Source of the DNA: Gemmatimonadota bacterium
Lineage (GTDB): Bacteria > Gemmatimonadota > Gemmatimonadetes > Longimicrobiales > Gaopeijiaceae
DNA: 64,000 nucleotides
Assembly (NCBI GenBank): GCA_039589315.1
Contig: JBDHHQ010000011.1
Coordinates: 22,112-86,111 of the forward strand
Direction of reading: 5' to 3'
This document shows positions 4,974-64,000 of this stretch, piece after piece. The notes under the pieces are model-generated. The model made no database searches. It was not told where the DNA came from and worked only from the letters and a program-made list of their open reading frames with translations. The translations under genes and the position numbers were made by a program. The stretch's first letter is position 1. Each line of letters begins with the position of its first letter.

Positions 4974-6479
4974 ATGGGTCCCCACTCGCTGCTCGGGTTT
5001 CGCCAGCGAACGCTGGCCCTGTCGATGGCCGCTGTGATGGCTGGAGCATGCGCCGAACGGCCGGCCCCTCGGCCTCCCAACATCGTCTTCATCATGGCGG
5101 ACGATCTCGGGTACGGTGAGCTCGGAGCCTACGGCCAGGCCAAGATCCGGACCCCGCACATCGACCGTCTAGCGGCGGAGGGGCTGCGGTTCACGCAGCA
5201 TTACTCCGGGAGTCCTGTCTGTGCGCCGTCCCGAGCAGTGCTCCTCACCGGGCTTCACACCGGCCACGCATACATCCGTGGCAACGACGAGATGGCGGAC
5301 CGCGGCGATGTCTGGCACGACTTGAGGCTGGAAGGCCAACGGCCGCTTCCGGAAGGCACGGTCACGGTGGCCGCGCTGCTCCAGGAGACCGGGTACGTGA
5401 CCGGTGCGATGGGCAAGTGGGGCCTGGGTGGACCGGGCAGCACGGGAGCGCCCAACAAGCAGGGATTCGACCGGTGGTACGGCTACCTCGGCCAACGGCT
5501 GGCGCACAACTACTACCCGGTGCATCTCTGGCGGGACAGCGTCGAGCACGTGCTGGAAGGGAACGACTACTTCCACCCCCACCAGGCGCTCCCCGAGACT
5601 GCGGATCCACGCGACCCGGCCTCATACGCGGCGTTTTCGGGCGAGCAGTACTCCCACGACCTCATCGCGGAGGAGGCGCTGCGCTTCATCAGGGACAGCC
5701 AGGACCAGCCCTTCTTCCTGTACGTACCGTTCACGATCCCGCACGTGGCTCTACAGGTGCCCGAGGACGCGCTGGCCGAGTACGACGGCGAGTTCGACGA
5801 GGATCCGTACGTTGGCCCCGTGGACGGCGCGATCAGCTATCTGCCCCACCCCAGGCCCCGCTCCGCCTACGCGGCCATGATCTCACGGATGGACCGCGAC
5901 GTGGGGCGGATCCTGGCCCTTCTGGTCGAGCTCGGCTTGGACGAGCAAACGATCGTGTTCTTCACCAGCGACAACGGTCCGAGCTGGGTCGGCGGTGCCG
6001 ATCCGGACTTCTTCGAGAGCCGGGGCCCGCTGCGCGGTCGCAAGGCGGAGCTCTGGGATGGGGGAATCCGGGTACCCATGGTGGTCCGTTGGCCCGGACG
6101 AATCGCTCCCGGGACCCTGACGGATCTTCTGTCCGCCTTCTGGGACGTGTTACCTACGTTGGTGGAGCTTGCCGGCGCGGCGACGCCCCCCGGGCTGGAT
6201 GGCCTGTCACTCGTCCCCACGTTACTGGGGGATGAGGAGGCACAGCGCCGTCACGAGTATCTCTACTGGGAGTTCAGGGGTGGGCAGGCGGTGCGATACG
6301 GCGACTGGAAGGGGATCCGATGGCCGGGGCGCAGCGACGTCGAGTTGTACGACCTGGCCACCGACATCGGTGAGTCGCACGATGTGGCCCGGGACCATCC
6401 CCGGGTCGTGGCGCGAATCGAGGAGATCATGAGGACCGCTCGCACCGAGTCGGAGCTGTTTCCACTGGAGCACCGCTAG
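4974..6479 (+). CDS. Arylsulfatase (formylglycine-dependent sulfatase), probable lipoprotein
   Basis: PNIVFIMADDLGYG, CAPSRAVLLTG (CxPxR), GKWGLG, FTSDNG; signal ending MAGAC; true start may be slightly downstream. Confidence 0.93.
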   Translation: MGPHSLLGFRQRTLALSMAAVMAGACAERPAPRPPNIVFIMADDLGYGELGAYGQAKIRTPHIDRLAAEGLRFTQHYSGSPVCAPSRAVLLTGLHTGHAYIRGNDEMADRGDVWHDLRLEGQRPLPEGTVTVAALLQETGYVTGAMGKWGLGGPGSTGAPNKQGFDRWYGYLGQRLAHNYYPVHLWRDSVEHVLEGNDYFHPHQALPETADPRDPASYAAFSGEQYSHDLIAEEALRFIRDSQDQPFFLYVPFTIPHVALQVPEDALAEYDGEFDEDPYVGPVDGAISYLPHPRPRSAYAAMISRMDRDVGRILALLVELGLDEQTIVFFTSDNGPSWVGGADPDFFESRGPLRGRKAELWDGGIRVPMVVRWPGRIAPGTLTDLLSAFWDVLPTLVELAGAATPPGLDGLSLVPTLLGDEEAQRRHEYLYWEFRGGQAVRYGDWKGIRWPGRSDVELYDLATDIGESHDVARDHPRVVARIEEIMRTARTESELFPLEHR

Positions 6480-52056: not shown

Positions 52057-54354
52057 TCAGAAGATCTGCCCCAGGAAGAAGTACCACGAGCCCGAGCCGC
52101 CGTCGGCCAACCCGTACGCGGTGTAGATCGGGCCCACCAACGTGTCGAATCCCAGGAACACGCTGGCCGAGAACCGCAGGTTGTCGGTGGCGATCTCGTC
52201 CGTCGTTCTCCAGGCGTTCCCGGTTTCGAGGCTTCCGCCCAGCCGAAACCCGCCGACGGGGGCGAGCCCACGGGGTTGGCTGATCAACCGGTGGTAGACC
52301 AATGCGCCGAAGCCCAGATAGTCGCCGGTGATCTGCCGGCGCTGCAGGCCGGACAGGGATAGGAAGCCGCCGAGCTCGAACCGCTCGTATGCGGGGAGGC
52401 CGGTGCCGAAGCTCGTGCCTGCGCGGGCAGTCAGCACGACCGAGTTTCGCCCCCGGGTGAACGCCGGTGAGACGGCGACTCTCAGCTTCTGGAACGCCAC
52501 GTCACCTCCCAGAAACTCGTTCGCCAGCTTGGCGTCCACGACCGCGGCAAAGCCCTTGCCCGGAAACCTGGGGTTGTCGATCTCGTCGACGGCGAAGCGC
52601 GTGATTACGCTGGCGACGTCGTCCTCGATCGTGGGGAGATCGGACGATCCGACCGTGGGCGCCGCCTTGACGTGCTCCCAGGAGAGGCCCGCCTCGAGCT
52701 GGCCCCACAGGCCCAGGCGACTGCCGCCCGTGAGCCGTCCACCGGCGGACTTGGTGCGGTACTGAGCGATGGCCGCGTCTCCCTCGAAAACGGGGTCGAG
52801 CCGACTCGAGTACTCACCTCCGAGCAGCCCGAAGAGCGCCAGCCGGTCGTCCAGCGGCTGATACCACTCCGCAGCGAGGCGCCGGGTCTCACCGAGCTGG
52901 ACCTCCGCCCGGATCTCGCCTCCCCTACGGTTCAGCCTGGTCGCCGTGAACCGCGTGAGAGTGTTGAACGTGCTCAGGCTCTCGATGTTGTCGCGGATGG
53001 CAAGGCCGAAGCGGAAGTAGTTGGGGCCCCAGGGCTTCTCCTGCGGTCGGACCAGGATCCCGGTTTCGGCTCCTCTGTGGAGAAGCTCGAAGTCGACCTT
53101 CTGGAACTCGCCGACACCCTGCAGCACCGTGAGCCGCTCCCGAAGCTCCCCGAGCGGCACGGTCTCACCGGCCTCGAGGTCGAGGAGACCTTCCACGACG
53201 GCGTCGGAGAGCCTCGTCTCATTGTCGATCTCCACGAAGTCGACGCGGACGGACCGTTCGCGAGGAATGATACGGTGCGTGTACGGTTCGTACGCCTGCG
53301 GCGTGAGGCTGAGGTTTCGTAGGGCGGCCTCCGCTCCCCGCGCGGCCTCCAGCCCGATGGGGACCGCGGCCATGATCTGGTCGAAGCTCGCCACGCCGAT
53401 GTCCCCGAGGTCGGGTCGGATCAAGATGTCGGAGGGTCCGAGCTCCCCGCGGGAGCGTTCCGAGTTGGCCTGAACAACGAGCGTGGTCACCTGCAACGCG
53501 ACGCCCGGGGCGCTCCGCAAGTTCTCCCGCGGCGCGAGTGGAGAGCCCACGTCGATTGCGATCACGACATCGGCCCCCATCTCCCGCACCACGTCCACAG
53601 GGATGTTGCGCAGTATCCCGCCGTCGACCAACAGCCGTCCGTCTATCTCGATGGGCTCGAATGCCCCGGGCATGGCCATGGAAGCCAGGATCGCCCGGGA
53701 CAGCCTGCCTTCGCTCAGCACGACGAGGTCGCCCGTGACCAAGTCGGCCGCGATGCTCCGGAAGGGGACAGGTAGTCGATCGAAGTCCCGGACCTCGGCC
53801 ACGGGCAGCGTCACGGCCTTGACGAGCAGGTTGAGGCCGTGTCCGCCGATCAAGCTTGCGGGCAACCGGAAGCTCTCTCCGTCGAACCCGATTTCGATGT
53901 CCATGAGAGAGCTGCGGCTGTCCTGCTTTCTCCGGAACGTCAGGTCCCGTCGGGGCGGAGCGCCTCGGAACAGCTCGTTCCAGTTGATCTCGCCCAGGAG
54001 CTCTTCGATCTCGTCGAGGGACATGCCCGAGGCGTACGCCCCGCCGATGATGGCGCCCATGGAGGTCCCGGCGACGTAGTCCACAGGTACCCGGAGTTCC
54101 TCGAGGACCCGCAGCACGCCGATGTGGGCGCCGCCGCGGGCTCCCCCACCTCCCAGGACGACTCCGACCTTGGGTCGGTCGGCGGTTTGTGACTTAGCTG
54201 GGGTCGGGAGGACGGCGACGCTCGCCGAGGCGAGGGCGAGGGTCAGGAGAACGGATGATGGGATCGGGGCGCCGGCCCTGGAGGGGCGGGGAAGTTCCGG
54301 CCCGGACGACGGTCGCACGCTCATGGTCTGGCGCGGCACGGATCGGCCGCTCAT
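52057..54354 (-). CDS. Patatin-like phospholipase with POTRA and Omp85-type barrel (PlpD/type Vd-like)
   Basis: GGGGARG, GTSMG, DGG; C-terminal beta strands FELGGFLSLSG...YFFLGQIF; start uncertain. Confidence 0.9.
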   Translation of the reverse strand: MSGRSVPRQTMSVRPSSGPELPRPSRAGAPIPSSVLLTLALASASVAVLPTPAKSQTADRPKVGVVLGGGGARGGAHIGVLRVLEELRVPVDYVAGTSMGAIIGGAYASGMSLDEIEELLGEINWNELFRGAPPRRDLTFRRKQDSRSSLMDIEIGFDGESFRLPASLIGGHGLNLLVKAVTLPVAEVRDFDRLPVPFRSIAADLVTGDLVVLSEGRLSRAILASMAMPGAFEPIEIDGRLLVDGGILRNIPVDVVREMGADVVIAIDVGSPLAPRENLRSAPGVALQVTTLVVQANSERSRGELGPSDILIRPDLGDIGVASFDQIMAAVPIGLEAARGAEAALRNLSLTPQAYEPYTHRIIPRERSVRVDFVEIDNETRLSDAVVEGLLDLEAGETVPLGELRERLTVLQGVGEFQKVDFELLHRGAETGILVRPQEKPWGPNYFRFGLAIRDNIESLSTFNTLTRFTATRLNRRGGEIRAEVQLGETRRLAAEWYQPLDDRLALFGLLGGEYSSRLDPVFEGDAAIAQYRTKSAGGRLTGGSRLGLWGQLEAGLSWEHVKAAPTVGSSDLPTIEDDVASVITRFAVDEIDNPRFPGKGFAAVVDAKLANEFLGGDVAFQKLRVAVSPAFTRGRNSVVLTARAGTSFGTGLPAYERFELGGFLSLSGLQRRQITGDYLGFGALVYHRLISQPRGLAPVGGFRLGGSLETGNAWRTTDEIATDNLRFSASVFLGFDTLVGPIYTAYGLADGGSGSWYFFLGQIF

Positions 54355-54557
54355 CCCCCTTTAGCCGTGTCACTTTCCTGATAGCCGAGGCTGCTCGAGG
54401 GTGGTATGGTGCTTGTGGTGGGGCGGGCGCGCCAGACCCCGGCGCGGTCGCCCCTCCCGCTCTTGTTGATCGCGCCGGATCGGGCTCGGGAGCCCTTGAC
54501 CTCGATGCGACGCACGGCTCGGACCGATCACCTGGGTCCGGGAAGGGAGACGCCCCC

Positions 54558-55847
54558 ATGAGCTCGAAGGCCCTCGTTCGCGGATTCTTCGTCGTCCTGG
54601 TGCTCGCCATCCTGGCGGTCGGGTCCTACACGGTGGGACGCGCCGACGAGCGGCGGGGCGCCGACTCGCCCCTGGTCGCCGTAGCGGCGGCCCAATCCCA
54701 AGAGCCCCTCATCAGCCCGACCGGGGTTCGTGTGGCCCGGGAGGCCTACTTCCCCAACTCGGAGGAGCTGGGCCCGGACGAGATGCGGGTCATCTCGTGC
54801 GGCACCGGCATGCCGACGGGCCGCGAGTCCCAGGCCGCGGCGTGCTTCCTGGTGGAGTTGGGGAACGGCGACAAGTTCATCTTCGACTCCGGCACGGGGT
54901 CGCACGTCCGCATCGCCAGCATGGAGATCCCCTACGACTTCCTGGACAAGATCTTCCTCAGCCACCTGCACACCGACCACTTCGGCGACTTCGCCGCTTA
55001 CTACATCGGTGGATGGGTGGCCGGTCGCACGGTGCCACTCCGCGTCTGGGGGCCCAGCGGTTCCGCGCCGGACCTGGGGACGGACTACGCCCTGAACCGT
55101 TGGCGGGAAGCGCTCAATTGGGACATCACCAATCGGCGGGGCCGCCTGCCAGCCAGTGGCGGTGAGCTCCAGATCACGGAGTTCGACTACAAGGGTGAGA
55201 ACCACGTCGTCTACCAGGAGAACGGCGTCACCATTCGCGCCTGGCCCGCCATCCACGGGATTGACGGGTCGGTCAGCTACCGCCTCGAATGGAACGGCCT
55301 GAGCTTCGTGTTCGGCGGCGACACGTATCCCAATCAGTGGTTCGTCGAGTACGCCCAGGGCGCCGATCTTGTGGTCCACGAGGCCATGATGGCGGTGGAA
55401 GACTACATCCGGAAGTTCAAGTTCCCACCCGGGCTGGCCCTGGAGATCGGAGTGAACATCCACACGTCGCCCGAGTCGTTCGGCAAAGTCATGAGTCTGG
55501 TGCAGCCGCGCATGGCGGTGGCCTACCATTTCTTCAATGACTTCGACACCCGGGAAAGGATCGGTCTGGGGATCCGGAGCACCTACGACGGGCCGCTCAC
55601 CATGGCCACCGACTACATGGTCTGGAACGTGACCCGAGACGCCCTCGAGGTTCGGGAGGTCCATTTCAACCCGGACGTCTGGCCGCCGCCAGCTGCCTAC
55701 CCGAAACCCGACATCGACCAGGCCGGGATGGTGTTCGTGTCGGACGAGATCAACTCTCGGCGTCTACCTGAGGCGGCCGACGTTGATCAGGCGATCTACG
55801 ACCGGATCAACGCCCAGTACGGAACGAACTTCCGGCTGGGTCGCTGA
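54558..55847 (+). CDS. Exported MBL-fold metallo-hydrolase (RNase Z/AtsA-like subgroup)
   Basis: GGGAGA RBS; N-terminal signal/TM; CGTGMP, FDSGTG, SHLHTDH, FGGDT, VHE, YHF. Confidence 0.88.
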   Translation: MSSKALVRGFFVVLVLAILAVGSYTVGRADERRGADSPLVAVAAAQSQEPLISPTGVRVAREAYFPNSEELGPDEMRVISCGTGMPTGRESQAAACFLVELGNGDKFIFDSGTGSHVRIASMEIPYDFLDKIFLSHLHTDHFGDFAAYYIGGWVAGRTVPLRVWGPSGSAPDLGTDYALNRWREALNWDITNRRGRLPASGGELQITEFDYKGENHVVYQENGVTIRAWPAIHGIDGSVSYRLEWNGLSFVFGGDTYPNQWFVEYAQGADLVVHEAMMAVEDYIRKFKFPPGLALEIGVNIHTSPESFGKVMSLVQPRMAVAYHFFNDFDTRERIGLGIRSTYDGPLTMATDYMVWNVTRDALEVREVHFNPDVWPPPAAYPKPDIDQAGMVFVSDEINSRRLPEAADVDQAIYDRINAQYGTNFRLGR

Positions 55848-59935: not shown

Positions 59936-60883
59936 ATGCGTGTGCAGGGATGCTGGGCGGGAGTCGTCTTGTTGGGCGTCGCGTGCGGGGGAGCAGAGGA
60001 GGCGGCGCCCGGGAGCTCGGCCGCTACTGTGTCGGCGGAGGATCCGAGTGCGACGGTTCCCGTCGTCTACGTGGTCAACTACCCGCTGGCGTACATGGCC
60101 GAGCGGGTGGGGAACGGGCGGGTGCAGGTCGAGTTTCCCGCGCCCGACGACCTGGACCCGGCCATGTGGTCTCCGGGACCCGAGATCGTCACCGCCTTCC
60201 AGGCAGCTGACCTGATTCTCCTGAACGGCGCCGGCTACGCCGGCTGGGTGAGCCGGGTCAGCCTGCCGGAGGGCAAGCTGGTGGACACGTCCGCCGGCTT
60301 CGCCGATCGGTACCTCACCGTGGACGAGGCGGTGACCCACAGCCACGGACCCGAGGGCGAGCACTCCCACGAGGCGACCGCCTTCACGACGTGGCTCGAT
60401 CCGACGTTGGCGCTGGAGCAGGCCCGGGCCGTCCACGCCGCCTTGGTCGACCACTGGCCCGAGAACCGGACGGCTTTCGACGAGGGGCTCGAGGCACTGG
60501 AGGCCGACCTCACGGCCCTGGACGCGCAGCAAGCGCAGCTCACCGCGAATGCGGGGGAGCAGCCCATCATGGCCTCCCATCCGGTCTATCAGTACCTCGC
60601 GGGACGGTACGGGCTGAACCTGCGGAGCGTGCACTTCGAGCCAGGCGAGATGCCGGACGTCGCGGGGTGGCGACAGTTGGCCGACATCCTGTCCGAGCAC
60701 CCGGCCGAGTGGATGCTGTGGGAGGGAGAGCCGCAGCCGGGGGTGCGGGACCGGCTCCGGGAGATGGGGGTCGAGAGCGTCGTGTACGATCCAGCCGGCA
60801 ACAGGCCGGAAGAAGGGGACTACCTGACGGTCATGGGTGCCAACGCAGAGAACCTGCGCACGGTGTTCGGGTCGGGTACGTAG
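59936..60883 (+). CDS. ZnuA/TroA-fold metal-binding lipoprotein (atypical ligands)
   Basis: Lipobox GVAC; ADLILLNGAG, HSHGPEGEHSH loop, TWLDP, SHPVYQYLAGRYGL, DYLTVM. Confidence 0.87.
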   Translation: MRVQGCWAGVVLLGVACGGAEEAAPGSSAATVSAEDPSATVPVVYVVNYPLAYMAERVGNGRVQVEFPAPDDLDPAMWSPGPEIVTAFQAADLILLNGAGYAGWVSRVSLPEGKLVDTSAGFADRYLTVDEAVTHSHGPEGEHSHEATAFTTWLDPTLALEQARAVHAALVDHWPENRTAFDEGLEALEADLTALDAQQAQLTANAGEQPIMASHPVYQYLAGRYGLNLRSVHFEPGEMPDVAGWRQLADILSEHPAEWMLWEGEPQPGVRDRLREMGVESVVYDPAGNRPEEGDYLTVMGANAENLRTVFGSGT

Positions 60884-60899: not shown

Positions 60900-61697
60900 C
60901 TACCCGGTCATCCGCTCGCGGATCGCCGCGCGCACCTCCTCGGGCAACTCCACGTCGCCCAGCGCGTGACACACGTCGGACGCCAGGTCCAGCGTTGCGA
61001 ACGTCGATTGGCAGCGCTCGCACAGGTGCTCGGGCGGGATGGGGAACTCCACTCCCCGGTCCATGGCCTCCTGCTTGGCCCAGAGCAGGTCCAGGCAGCC
61101 CTCGCTCGGCGGACCGGCCTGATGGCTCGGTCGTTGGGGCAGGGGCCGCGTCAGCTCCTTCCTCATGAGCAGTCGGGCCCGGTGCAGGCGCGTCTTCACC
61201 GTGGCTGGCTTCACGCCGAGAACGGCCGCCACCTCGTCGATGGACACGTCTTCCATCTCCTTCAGGACCACTGGTAGGCGGAAGTCCAAAGGCAGCGTGT
61301 CGATGGCCCGGCGCACGGCGGCGATGACTTCGCTGCGCTGCGTCCATTCCAGCGGCGTATCCCCGTCGGCCGGAATGTCCACGACGGTGGTCTCGCCCGA
61401 GGGCAGGAGCTGTTCCAGCGGCTTCATGTGCCGGGGCTCCCCGGCTCGACGCCTCTCCAACCGCTGACAGGCCCGGGACGCGATCGTGTAGAGCCACGTG
61501 GACGGCTTGGACCGCCCGTCGAACCCGTCCCAGCTCTTCAAGGCCCGCACGAAGGTCTCCTGCACCAGGTCCTCGGCTCTCTCGGGGTCGGCGCACAGGC
61601 GCAAGCCCAGCCCATAGATCTGGTCTCCGTGCTTCTCGAGTAGCACGGAAATCGCCTTCTCGGCCGGCTGCTGTGTCAGCTCTGTCGTGTCGCTCAC
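60900..61697 (-). CDS. ECF sigma-70 factor with Cys/His-rich C-terminal extension
   Basis: AEDLVQETF, STWLYTIA (region 2); EVAAVLGVKPATVKTRLHRAR (region 4); tail GCLDLL...EHLCERC...DVC; start uncertain (61697-61793). Confidence 0.9.
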   Translation of the reverse strand: MSDTTELTQQPAEKAISVLLEKHGDQIYGLGLRLCADPERAEDLVQETFVRALKSWDGFDGRSKPSTWLYTIASRACQRLERRRAGEPRHMKPLEQLLPSGETTVVDIPADGDTPLEWTQRSEVIAAVRRAIDTLPLDFRLPVVLKEMEDVSIDEVAAVLGVKPATVKTRLHRARLLMRKELTRPLPQRPSHQAGPPSEGCLDLLWAKQEAMDRGVEFPIPPEHLCERCQSTFATLDLASDVCHALGDVELPEEVRAAIRERMTG

Positions 61698-61838
61698 GAT
61701 GCCGTCGGGATGGTCTCGGGACGCTCTCACGGGGGCGTAGGGACTCCGAAAGCTGGCACTCCCGTCGATGATCGGCCAGGCCTCGGGGAGCACTCCGCTC
61801 GTGTCTCCTGCGTGGCTTGCACGAGGCCCTCCGCATCA

Positions 61839-61868
61839 GGAACCTCCCTAGGCCTGCGTGGCACCAAA
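61839..61868 (+). promoter_or_regulatory. Candidate ECF promoter, copy 1
   Basis: GGAACCTC-cctaggcctg-CGTG-GCAC-CAAA, about 65 nt before ATG 61934. Confidence 0.6.
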
Positions 61869-61933
61869 GGGATGGAGTGACAGAAGCCCAGCAGCCCCAT
61901 GGATCACGGGCTTCGGGAGAAAGGCAGAATGCC

Positions 61934-62433
61934 ATGAAGCGGAAGGGACGACTTGGGGAGGGCAGCGCGATCACCCTGGCGATCGCCATCTTCGCCGCAC
62001 AGGCGTGCGGGAGCGACGAGGGCCCCACCAACGCGGTCGTGACGGATCGAGAGCTCGCCGTCGTCATGACGGCCGCCATCCAGGACGAATACCACGCCGA
62101 AGAGGTCTATCTGAAGGTCCTGAACGACTTCGGAGACGTGCTTCCGTTCCTCAATATCGTAGTGGCCGAGGTGCGCCACTGACGTCCATCGGGGGGCTGT
62201 TCGAAAACCGCGGATGGGTCGTGCCCGTCAGCGACTGGAGCGGCGACAACGTACCTGGATTCGCCACCCTGGCTCAGGCCTGCGCGGCAGGTGTCGACGC
62301 AGAGCTCGCCAACATCGCCCTCTACGACGAGCTGCTGAAGGGCGACCTCCCAGCCGACGTGCGGCGCGTGTTCGAGAACGTCCGGGCAGCGTCGCTCAAC
62401 AGCCATCTGCCGGCCTTCGAGCGGTGCCGCTAG
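61934..62433 (+). pseudogene. Ferritin-like (DUF2202-like) lipoprotein, 1-bp frameshift at ~62180
   Basis: AQAC lipobox; IQDEYHAEEVY...PFLNIVVAEVRH* continues in the -1 frame as TSIGGLF...AELANIALY...SLNSHLPAFERC. Confidence 0.8.
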
Positions 62434-62580
62434 GTGGGAAAGGAGAGATGAGGGCGAACCTCGGCTCTCGTCGCGGGAGCCGGGCGCCCCATCGGTCCCG
62501 AGGACAATCAGAGGCCGAGAACGGCGACTGATCGAAGCGAACGCGAGAGAACCGCATTGCATGCGAGAAAGAGCCCGAAG

Positions 62581-63111
62581 ATGAGAATCATGATCAGGCG
62601 GACATTCAGCTCCACGGCGCCAATCGCCGCTCTGCTGTTGGCGGCGTGTGGCGGAGAGAAAGGCCCTGACGCTGCAGGGGCCGAGGCGGCCGTCGAAGCG
62701 GCCCGCGAGGCGGCTCCGGTCTCCACCGCCGTATCCTCCGGGGCCGTCGGGGGCGGAGAGGCCGAGCTGCTCGTCCGGGGTGAGACCCTCTTCAACCAGG
62801 TCTGCACGGCGTGCCACACGCTGCAGCCGCCCCCCAATCTGGCTCCACCCATGATGGGGATCTCCGGACACTACCACGACCAGTTCGCCGAGCGCGACGA
62901 GGCCGTGGCTTGGATGGTGGCCTACATCCAGAGCCCGGATCCCGCCAACTCGAAGCTGAGCGAGGAGGCGTTCGAACGCTTCGGCACGATGGCGCCCCTG
63001 CCGCTGCCGGAGGAGGACCTGCGGGCGGTCATGACCTGGGTCTGGGAGATGTACGATCCCGAGCAGGACCCCCGGCCGGCCTGGGAGCGGTCGAGCGATG
63101 GGGGGCCGTAA
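62581..63111 (+). CDS. Monohaem cytochrome c lipoprotein
   Basis: LAAC lipobox, CTACH, APPM, FGTMAPL (distal Met candidate); start 62581 or 62590. Confidence 0.87.
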   Translation: MRIMIRRTFSSTAPIAALLLAACGGEKGPDAAGAEAAVEAAREAAPVSTAVSSGAVGGGEAELLVRGETLFNQVCTACHTLQPPPNLAPPMMGISGHYHDQFAERDEAVAWMVAYIQSPDPANSKLSEEAFERFGTMAPLPLPEEDLRAVMTWVWEMYDPEQDPRPAWERSSDGGP

Positions 63112-63733
63112 GCGGTCGCCACGGCTCCGGATCGGCCTGTTCCTGGGTCTGGGAGCGTTCCTGGCGGCGACACCGGGCTGCCGCGTCGACAGAGGAGTCG
63201 GGGAGCGCCTGTCGGAGGAGGAGCGCGCTCGTGCAGTGGCCGTCGGGAGGCCTGCCGCGGCGGCCCTGGCAACCGGCCTCGTTACGGAGCTGACGCGGGC
63301 GCTGGAGGAGCAGGGTCCCGAAAGAGCCGTGGAGGTCTGCTCAACGGAGGCTCTCCGACTCACCGAACAGATTGCCCACGACCTGAGCCCGGGGATGGAG
63401 CTCAAGCGGGTGTCGTTCCGGAACCGCAATCCGCAGAACGCTCCCGACGCTCTCGAGGCCGCTGCGCTCCGGTATTTCCAGGAGCTGTCGGAGCAGGGTG
63501 ACTCCCTCCCCCAGGAGTGGGTGCAGGCGGACGGAGTGGGCGGATCCCGGTACTACAAGCCGCTGTTCGTGGCCGACTTCTGCGTCCAGTGCCACGGCAG
63601 CCCCGAGCAGATCTCTCCCGCGGTTCAGGAGATCTTGGCCGAGCGGTACCCGGACGACGAGGCCTTGGGCTACGCCGAAGGCGATTTCCGGGGACTGATC
63701 CGGGTGTCCGTGCCGGCGGAGGTGGCGCGCTGA
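63098..63733 (+). CDS. DUF3365 (Tll0287-like) c-type haem lipoprotein
   Basis: PGC lipobox, AVEVC, KRVSFRNRNPQNAPD, RYYKPL, CVQCHG, YPDDEALGYAEGDFRG. Confidence 0.9.
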   Translation: MGGRKRSPRLRIGLFLGLGAFLAATPGCRVDRGVGERLSEEERARAVAVGRPAAAALATGLVTELTRALEEQGPERAVEVCSTEALRLTEQIAHDLSPGMELKRVSFRNRNPQNAPDALEAAALRYFQELSEQGDSLPQEWVQADGVGGSRYYKPLFVADFCVQCHGSPEQISPAVQEILAERYPDDEALGYAEGDFRGLIRVSVPAEVAR

Positions 63734-63911
63734 CGAGCTCGGCCCCGAAAGGGCGTCCGGCGGTCGTGGCGCCTGTCGGCTGCGGGCCGCCAGCGGGCGG
63801 CGCACCAGTCGTCCGATCGTCAACGCCCTGTGTGGACCGCTATCACACGCCACGAGAAACGGTCGGCCGGCACGGCCAGGGCCCGGCCACGGGGGCCTCT
63901 GCAAGTCCGCG

Positions 63912-63941
63912 GGAACCTCGGCGCCCACCCGTGTCACTCAA
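63912..63941 (+). promoter_or_regulatory. Candidate ECF promoter, copy 2 (for the gene starting just beyond the window)
   Basis: GGAACCTC-ggcgcccacc-CGTG-TCAC-TCAA, followed by an AGGAGG RBS at the window end. Confidence 0.6.
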
Positions 63942-64000
63942 CATCCAGCGGCAGGACTCGTACGCGGCAGTCCCGTGCAGTGAACCACCCAGGAGGACAC

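Follow-up and report, generated by a model that had tools for sequence, protein, structure and literature searches.

A candidate thiol-switched ECF sigma factor for reactive-sulfur stress with a fused anti-sigma-like cysteine tail in Gemmatimonadota

We analysed a 64,000-nucleotide stretch of a Gemmatimonadota genome, referred to here as the window, and focus on an extracytoplasmic function (ECF) sigma factor that carries a fused cysteine tail. The sigma gene occupies 60900..61697 on the minus strand and encodes 265 residues from a GTG codon at 61697, the likely start, within a longest open reading frame (ORF) from 61793; residues are numbered on protein P0001, which begins at 61700. Pfam matches to Sigma70_r2 and r4_2 and a TIGR02937 score of 83.4 (cut-off 42.9) reveal sigma2 and sigma4 without sigma3, the composition of an ECF sigma factor. 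Beyond region 4 lies a putative soluble zinc anti-sigma-like domain (60903..61139, minus strand) with cysteines C202 (codon 61097-61095), C227, C230 and C244 and three long helices, assigned from conservation, hhalign comparison and a complex model. No anti-sigma gene adjoins the fused sigma in the window, as had been noted in a preliminary description of this DNA.

The sigma gene is divergent from a plus-strand run of ferritin-like, cytochrome c and Tll0287/DUF3365 genes, preceded by predicted target promoter 1 (61839..61867, plus strand; GGAACC ... TGGCACCAA), which scores 27.5 bits against a matrix whose training set excluded the window. A DUF2202-like ferritin-fold gene is split between a 5′ half with a premature stop (61934..62182, plus strand) and a 3′ half in the −1 frame (62179..62433, plus strand), making it a likely pseudogene by ORF analysis and comparison with homologues. 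The run continues with a mono-haem cytochrome c (62581..63111, plus strand; PF00034, CxxCH) and a stand-alone Tll0287/DUF3365 haem protein (63098..63733, plus strand; PF11845, E 2e-24) that bears AVEVC and CVQCH, so both the CxxCH cytochrome and the DUF3365 protein with its additional AVEVC cysteine are present as first described. Predicted target promoter 2 (63912..63940, plus strand; GGAACC ... TGTCACTCA) has the top score in the genome, 29.5 bits, and led to the continuation of the locus onto contig C29, which contig C11 overlaps by exactly 114 bp, the usual overlap of this assembly. There a ribosome-binding site (63991..64000, plus strand) serves a metallo-β-lactamase (MBL)–rhodanese gene (G000:C29:115-1560) whose ATG begins one base past 64000 and which is followed by a SulP gene (to C29:3549), so the gene module runs beyond the window edge. 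The dioxygenase–rhodanese matches PDB entry 3tp9 (E 9e-115), is called as MBL plus rhodanese by both Pfam and NCBIfam and, when aligned to 3tp9 and 3r2u, has the HIHADF motif, the GSACGK cysteine and the C-terminal rhodanese cysteine of a CstB-like protein; we take 3tp9 and 3r2u to be CstB proteins, and assume the roles of these motif residues likewise. A scan for sigma-70 promoters and terminators returned nothing exceeding chance.

Two statements of the preliminary description about the divergent genes required correction. The ferritin-like gene, taken to be intact, is interrupted in frame 1 at TGA 62180-62182 directly after EVRH, with the remainder in the −1 frame; both halves lie within a single ORF in the homologues L128 and L195, and the intact L128 protein has a weak DUF2202 match (E 3e-5). 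A 268-bp contig of public run X1 spans 61958-62225 with two substitutions and no gap (depth 2.8; perhaps not independent of the source), so the frameshift is probably a real allele. All three products had been called lipoproteins, and judged against the lipobox consensus the cytochrome alone has a textbook signal (LAAC), AQAC and TPGC of the other two being atypical.

The tail extends approximately 80 residues past region 4, close to the 75 originally estimated, and is free of any hydrophobic segment (maximum 19-residue Kyte–Doolittle mean 0.84), as expected of a soluble domain. Its sequence, C202-LDLL...H225-L-C227-E-R-C230...C244, follows a family pattern C-x24-CxxC-x13-C, and helices are predicted at residues 200-215, 228-248 and 254-265. 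Conservation of the tail cysteines, a check proposed at the outset, is borne out: in an alignment of the best 120 of 123 proteins found with residues 170-266 (the query and 119 others, self-match excluded), C202, C227 and C230 are each present in 120/120 sequences and C244 in 119/120, the one missing case being a truncated sequence. Among 136 distant representatives out of 142 matches, the six weakest having been dropped, the rows that cover each position retain C202 in 109/111, C227 in 125/135, C230 in 134/135 and C244 in 122/132, and a sigma core lies upstream of the tail in 77 of the 83 with at least 60 upstream residues. The proposed compressed HxCxxC motif is not a family feature, as His225 occurs in only 42/120 homologues and falls outside the five commonest residues at its position in 133 distant homologues. 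Two further cysteines in sigma2 are specific to the family, C36 in 52/53 and C78 in 48/53 fused rows, with cysteine at these positions in just 3 and 6 unfused ECF rows. One 745-residue protein, P0155, unites sigma and tail with a TolC-like domain, either as a fusion or as a mis-call.

A profile of the tail aligned to 69 zinc anti-sigma (ZAS) domains with an hhalign probability of 86% (E 4.8e-6, 45 columns) and reached a zf-HC2 anti-sigma protein (E 6e-4). The separate ZAS proteins of related sigma factors L008, L023 and L043 share the CxxC-x13-C spacing, and the upstream cysteine about 25 residues before CxxC (C202-x24-C227) reproduces the ZAS-type arrangement. The HxxxCxxC signature of ZAS and zf-HC2 domains is absent from the tail, where the histidine stands at −2. 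These sequence comparisons identify the tail as a zinc anti-sigma domain that has diverged, and they support the earlier idea of a one-component sigma factor to which a conserved cysteine tail is fused.

We folded the sigma core and tail as two separate chains and obtained a score of 0.74, compared to 0.00 for the best of three controls; this mark is attained by 116/157 solved pairs and 2/215 mismatched pairs, and because comparable complexes have already been solved it measures likeness and not binding. Contacts agreed between runs to at least 93%, and partner pLDDT was at least 85. In the model, tail helix IV rests on the core-binding surface in sigma2.1/2.2; helices I and III rest on the −35 recognition surface of sigma4. 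As described in passages of PMC7406223, class I anti-sigma domains bind these same two surfaces, with helix 4 on sigma2.1/2.2 and helices 1 and 3 on sigma4. Compared to the four-helix class I fold, helix 2 of the tail is shrunk to a turn, and Foldseek returned no anti-sigma protein. The tail is predicted by the model to dock on sigma2 and sigma4 as a class I anti-sigma domain does.

Loci of the family share a promoter-like motif, GGAACC-N14-TG(T/G)C(A/T)C(C/T)(A/C)A, which we seeded on homologous loci with the window excluded and which converged on the matrix GGAACCt-N12-cgtGtCaCnnA. The motif is found in 57/110 loci, mostly just upstream of neighbour genes, with 2 matches in 73 control loci; the exact pattern occurs in 15/23 sigma-bearing genomes versus 13/377 others, and a reversed control pattern in 19/400. 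Genes most often found beside it are those for YeeE (13 sites) and for TolC/RND (11); dioxygenase–rhodanese, YgaP and NrfCD genes are also represented. Near-sigma sites are circular evidence, and seven distal sites lie outside the training set: all seven stand approximately 35-105 nt before SQR-like, PhsA-like, OsmC or DUF302 genes, where the SQR and PhsA labels are best matches below cut-off and the four DUF302 sites come from one genus. In the window the motif occurs at 61839, before the haem genes, and at 63912, before the dioxygenase–rhodanese and SulP pair; a third site in the genome precedes a thioredoxin gene (C17:57821), and two weaker ones, on C49 (20.6 bits) and C143 (21.9 bits), are not clearly before a gene. 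We infer from this association that the motif is the promoter of the target genes. Within the window the sigma gene itself has no copy of the motif upstream on its own strand and hence shows no sign of autoregulation.

Sulfur-handling genes recur around the fused sigma. At least one is nearby in 32/66 loci of at least 5 kb compared to 1/70 control ECF loci (unfused ECF loci out of the first relative scan, which comprised at least 80 loci, 6 of them fused), and the sole control match, L008, kept in the count, is a helix-turn-helix–MBL protein on inspection and not a dioxygenase–rhodanese. After grouping of sigma factors at 70% identity, 19 of 32 groups have a sulfur gene nearby. Across 108 loci we counted dioxygenase–rhodanese 21 times, two YeeE types 17 and 15 times, YgaP 9, SulP 7, TauE 4 and NrfCD 4. 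Planctomycetota loci are among those with sulfur-handling genes (TauE in L003 and L007, YeeE in L006). As read from gene neighbourhoods, the conserved output of the sigma family is cytoplasmic and membrane sulfur handling. Elsewhere in the same genome (C6:103376-107957, L228) an ArsR-family regulator accompanies an SQR-like gene, a YeeE/YedE pair and a second MBL–rhodanese; around this second cluster there is no ECF motif at 8 bits or more, the ArsR-family gene being there instead.

The haem and ferritin genes show a different distribution. Haem/ferritin synteny in other genomes, the lack of which the preliminary description had itself named as refuting, fails: near the fused sigma, Tll0287 is found in 0/108, cytochrome c in 1/108 and DUF2202 ferritin-like genes in 5/108 loci. 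Tll0287 is present in just 6/23 sigma-bearing genomes, and the motif precedes it at 0/7 loci from those six. Even so, the position of the family motif makes the divergent ferritin, cytochrome and DUF3365 genes likely targets in this genome: it stands 67 nt ahead of them and, in the closest relative, L137, immediately before the orthologous cytochrome; a motif is also found upstream of DUF2202 in L128. In L137 the motif precedes both the cytochrome and the dioxygenase–rhodanese, so the haem branch is, by motif position, a real part of the regulon, but at lineage level. Sigma control of the haem genes, as originally suggested, is therefore retained as a likely feature of this genome and set aside as the defining output of the family. 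Stand-alone Tll0287 genes at L267-L270 and L273, just upstream of an aminotransferase-like gene and adjoining prepilin-type genes, occur in a context unrelated to the sigma.

The tail is found in 24/401 genomes of the class and also in records from Acidobacteriota and Planctomycetota; metagenomes contributed another 207 stretches with it, of which 80 were kept for analysis. A quick tree of 152 cores unites all 73 fused rows and 3 paralogues without a tail in a single clade (SH-aLRT 96); the next rows outside it are a Nitrospirales sigma (L008), whose soluble ZAS is a separate protein, and the genome's own sigma on C29. The tail-less paralogues (L119, L203, L205) each lie divergent beside a fused sigma and are nested in the fused clade, which suggests duplication with tail loss. 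The C29 sigma (C29:4613-4038, minus strand; L211) lies about 4 kb past the window, is 36% identical to the window sigma with the same RRRAGEP linker, and is accompanied by a separate soluble zf-HC2 anti-sigma (C29 approximately 4050-3788, minus strand) and a YgaP-like gene (5509-5682). In a group of 17 loci (L143-L174) the fused sigma sits directly downstream of rpsU–dnaG–rpoD-like genes and is followed by a pterin-4a dehydratase; neither the motif nor a sulfur gene lies nearby, and the targets of this sigma would be elsewhere. A further subclade (L111, L113, L118, L120, L121), with phenylalanine for the fourth cysteine, has several copies of the motif and, as neighbours, USP, ParA/Mrp-like, TonB-C and radical SAM genes; it may sense something different.

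Comparison with known ECF systems places the family close to several groups. According to the group description of Casas-Pastor et al. 2021 (PMC7826278), ECF270s2 has a soluble ZAS at +1 that is fused to the sigma in 60%, and ECF270 has no conserved context and no conserved promoter, with Nitrospirae listed and Gemmatimonadota and Acidobacteriota not listed. The window sigma likewise has a fused soluble ZAS, and its nearest unfused relative in the quick tree is the Nitrospirales L008 pair; a fused soluble ZAS is thus already known. Unlike ECF270, as compared by group description only, fusion here is near-universal in the clade, the histidine ligand is lost, and motif and sulfur context are conserved. 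The family resembles SigR–RsrA and SigH–RshA (ECF12) and RpoE–ChrR (ECF11) in its ZAS-type cysteine spacing, predicted class I dual interface and a thioredoxin among likely targets, and differs from all three in being one polypeptide with four cysteines, no HxxxCxxC histidine, no sign of autoregulation and sulfur-centred targets. CorE and CorE2 (ECF44/ECF238) and the cysteine-rich ECF287 and ECF288 also have a fused, cysteine-containing C-terminal extension without a separate anti-sigma; their extension, however, is about 20 residues and required for activity, and CorE has a linker CxC, whereas here an approximately 80-residue helical fold without the ECF238/CorE-like short cysteine-rich domain or a conserved linker cysteine is predicted to be inhibitory. 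The fused zinc finger with transmembrane helices of ECF48/52/53 has no counterpart either, there being no hydrophobic segment. Like our family, ECF29 lacks an anti-sigma and has a soluble extension that contains cysteine, and its predicted promoter is similar (GGGAACCT / CATCCAAT), but its extension is about 30 residues with RCE/D, in contrast to CERC(Q/R), 80 residues and four cysteines here. The best NCBIfam model, PRK11922, which we presume may correspond to ECF29, scores 119.7 against a cut-off of 204, and its match ends at residue 187, before the tail.

The target families themselves are familiar from other regulators. CstR (CsoR family), SqrR/BigR (ArsR family) and FisR act on the same SQR, persulfide dioxygenase, sulfurtransferase, TauE and YeeE/YedE families, which passages of PMC13467558 and PMC9774590 give as targets of known reactive sulfur species sensors. 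Those regulators are repressors or a sigma54 activator, in contrast to the ECF sigma described here, and the sensor passages of these two reviews name CsoR, ArsR and Fis sensors and no ECF sigma. The literature searched, mostly at abstract level and with subscription papers outside its scope, contained no ECF sigma factor acting as a persulfide sensor, and the word rhodanese is absent from the ECF group descriptions drawn from Supplementary Text S2 of PMC7826278.

The explanation we favour, and hold to be somewhat better than an even bet, is a one-component, thiol-switched ECF sigma for reactive-sulfur stress in which the tail serves as its own anti-sigma. In the proposed mechanism, the four-cysteine tail would bind zinc and fold back as a built-in anti-sigma domain, with modelled helix IV masking sigma2.1/2.2 and helices I and III masking sigma4; persulfide or polysulfide would oxidise the tail cysteines and release the sigma, which would then engage GGAACC-N14-TG(T/G)C(A/T)C promoters of sulfide and persulfide detoxification genes. 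The putative regulon in this genome comprises the ferritin-like (broken)–cytochrome c–Tll0287 genes, the dioxygenase–rhodanese–SulP genes and a thioredoxin located far from them, which could reset the switch.

Several observations weigh against this explanation. The signal, zinc binding and direction of control rest on inference, and the full-length model reaches a pTM of only 0.60, so docking in cis is not established. Tail homology has gaps: PF13490 (zf-HC2) matches 0/22 tails, the tail has no significant PDB sequence match and no Foldseek PDB match, and alignment to one single ZAS sequence gives 1.9% only. Homologues were collected through tail similarity, which partly builds in the cysteine conservation, and in one subclade C244 is replaced by phenylalanine (5/27 genome-derived tails). 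The sulfur context is likewise incomplete, as 13/32 sigma groups, among them the group of 17 loci downstream of rpoD, lack a nearby sulfur gene, and TolC (13), RND (11) and USP (9) genes are also frequent among the 108 loci. Neighbour profiles and motif were built from the test loci, controls came from other taxa, and kin are not independent. The unfused sigma/ZAS pair on C29 may read the same promoter, and the motif also precedes thioredoxin (C17:57821, L165), OsmC (G171) and peroxiredoxin-like (L271) genes, a pattern that fits general thiol stress.

This last pattern underlies the strongest rival, a general thiol/disulfide or peroxide stress switch of the SigR–RsrA kind with the same architecture, in which sulfur genes would form a single arm of the regulon. 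That ZAS domains sense oxidants is well established (PMC8999054), yet YeeE and TolC/RND are the commonest motif-bearing neighbours, thioredoxin lies near the fused sigma in just 2/108 loci, and a passage of PMC9774590 notes that persulfides too are cleared by thioredoxin and peroxiredoxin; we regard this rival as unlikely, while giving it appreciable weight. Metal activation is far less probable. A CorE-like sigma whose cysteine tail is needed for activity and senses Cu, Zn or Cd would agree with the metal sensing by cysteine-rich C-terminal extensions reported for CorE and CorE2 (PMC8999054, in the passages on these proteins), with RND/TolC efflux genes in 11-13/108 loci and with the ZnuA-like gene that abuts the sigma here; against it stand a helical, ZAS-like tail of about 80 residues in place of a cysteine-rich domain of about 20, without a conserved linker CxC, and the absence of copper ATPases and multicopper oxidases from the subset of called neighbour proteins that was scanned (92 + 29). 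The ZnuA-like gene, which ends at 60883, is convergent with the sigma and is not syntenic, being found in 0/30 and 0/80 loci, which speaks against a tie to metal uptake through ZnuA and its ABC neighbours; the metal regulon of the preliminary description is not supported.

The remaining alternative, a sigma devoted to a periplasmic module of ferritin, cytochrome and DUF3365 proteins for electron transfer or detoxification, takes its appeal from motifs directly upstream of the module, the L137 cytochrome and the L128 DUF2202 gene, and from the redox properties of stand-alone DUF3365 proteins described in a preprint (bioRxiv 10.64898/2026.02.01.703092). We consider it the least probable of these readings, given genes rare in the family (0, 1 and 5 of 108 loci), a Tll0287 never preceded by the motif and a first gene that is frameshifted here; it fails at family level and holds only for this lineage, where the module would be an accessory branch.

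Other features lie further upstream in the window. A secreted-looking MBL-fold hydrolase (54255-55847, plus strand) matches NCBIfam NF041257 (GntH family) at 456 against a cut-off of 333. Between 55886 and 60883 on the plus strand follow a 642-residue protein (no Pfam or NCBIfam match), a LolD-like ABC ATPase, a 392-residue permease-like protein (no match) and the ZnuA-like protein, possibly forming an unusual metal-handling ABC module.

At family level, we give about even chances to the broader proposal that this ECF clade of Gemmatimonadota, Acidobacteriota and Planctomycetota represents a fourth class of primary reactive-sulfur sensor, alongside the CsoR, ArsR and Fis types: one polypeptide would hold its zinc anti-sigma domain (Cys4, His-less) in cis, possibly helped by the sigma2 cysteine pair, and would replace ArsR-type repressors over the same SQR, dioxygenase, YeeE and TauE genes. 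If true, control would be positive and exerted through one protein, reversible without proteolysis or partner re-association, unlike known persulfide sensors, and the defined motif with two natural promoters would allow direct assay in a laboratory host. The family would tie DUF302, DUF2202, stand-alone DUF3365 and YgaP-like proteins to a candidate regulon and offer a handle on the sulfur physiology of mostly uncultured phyla.

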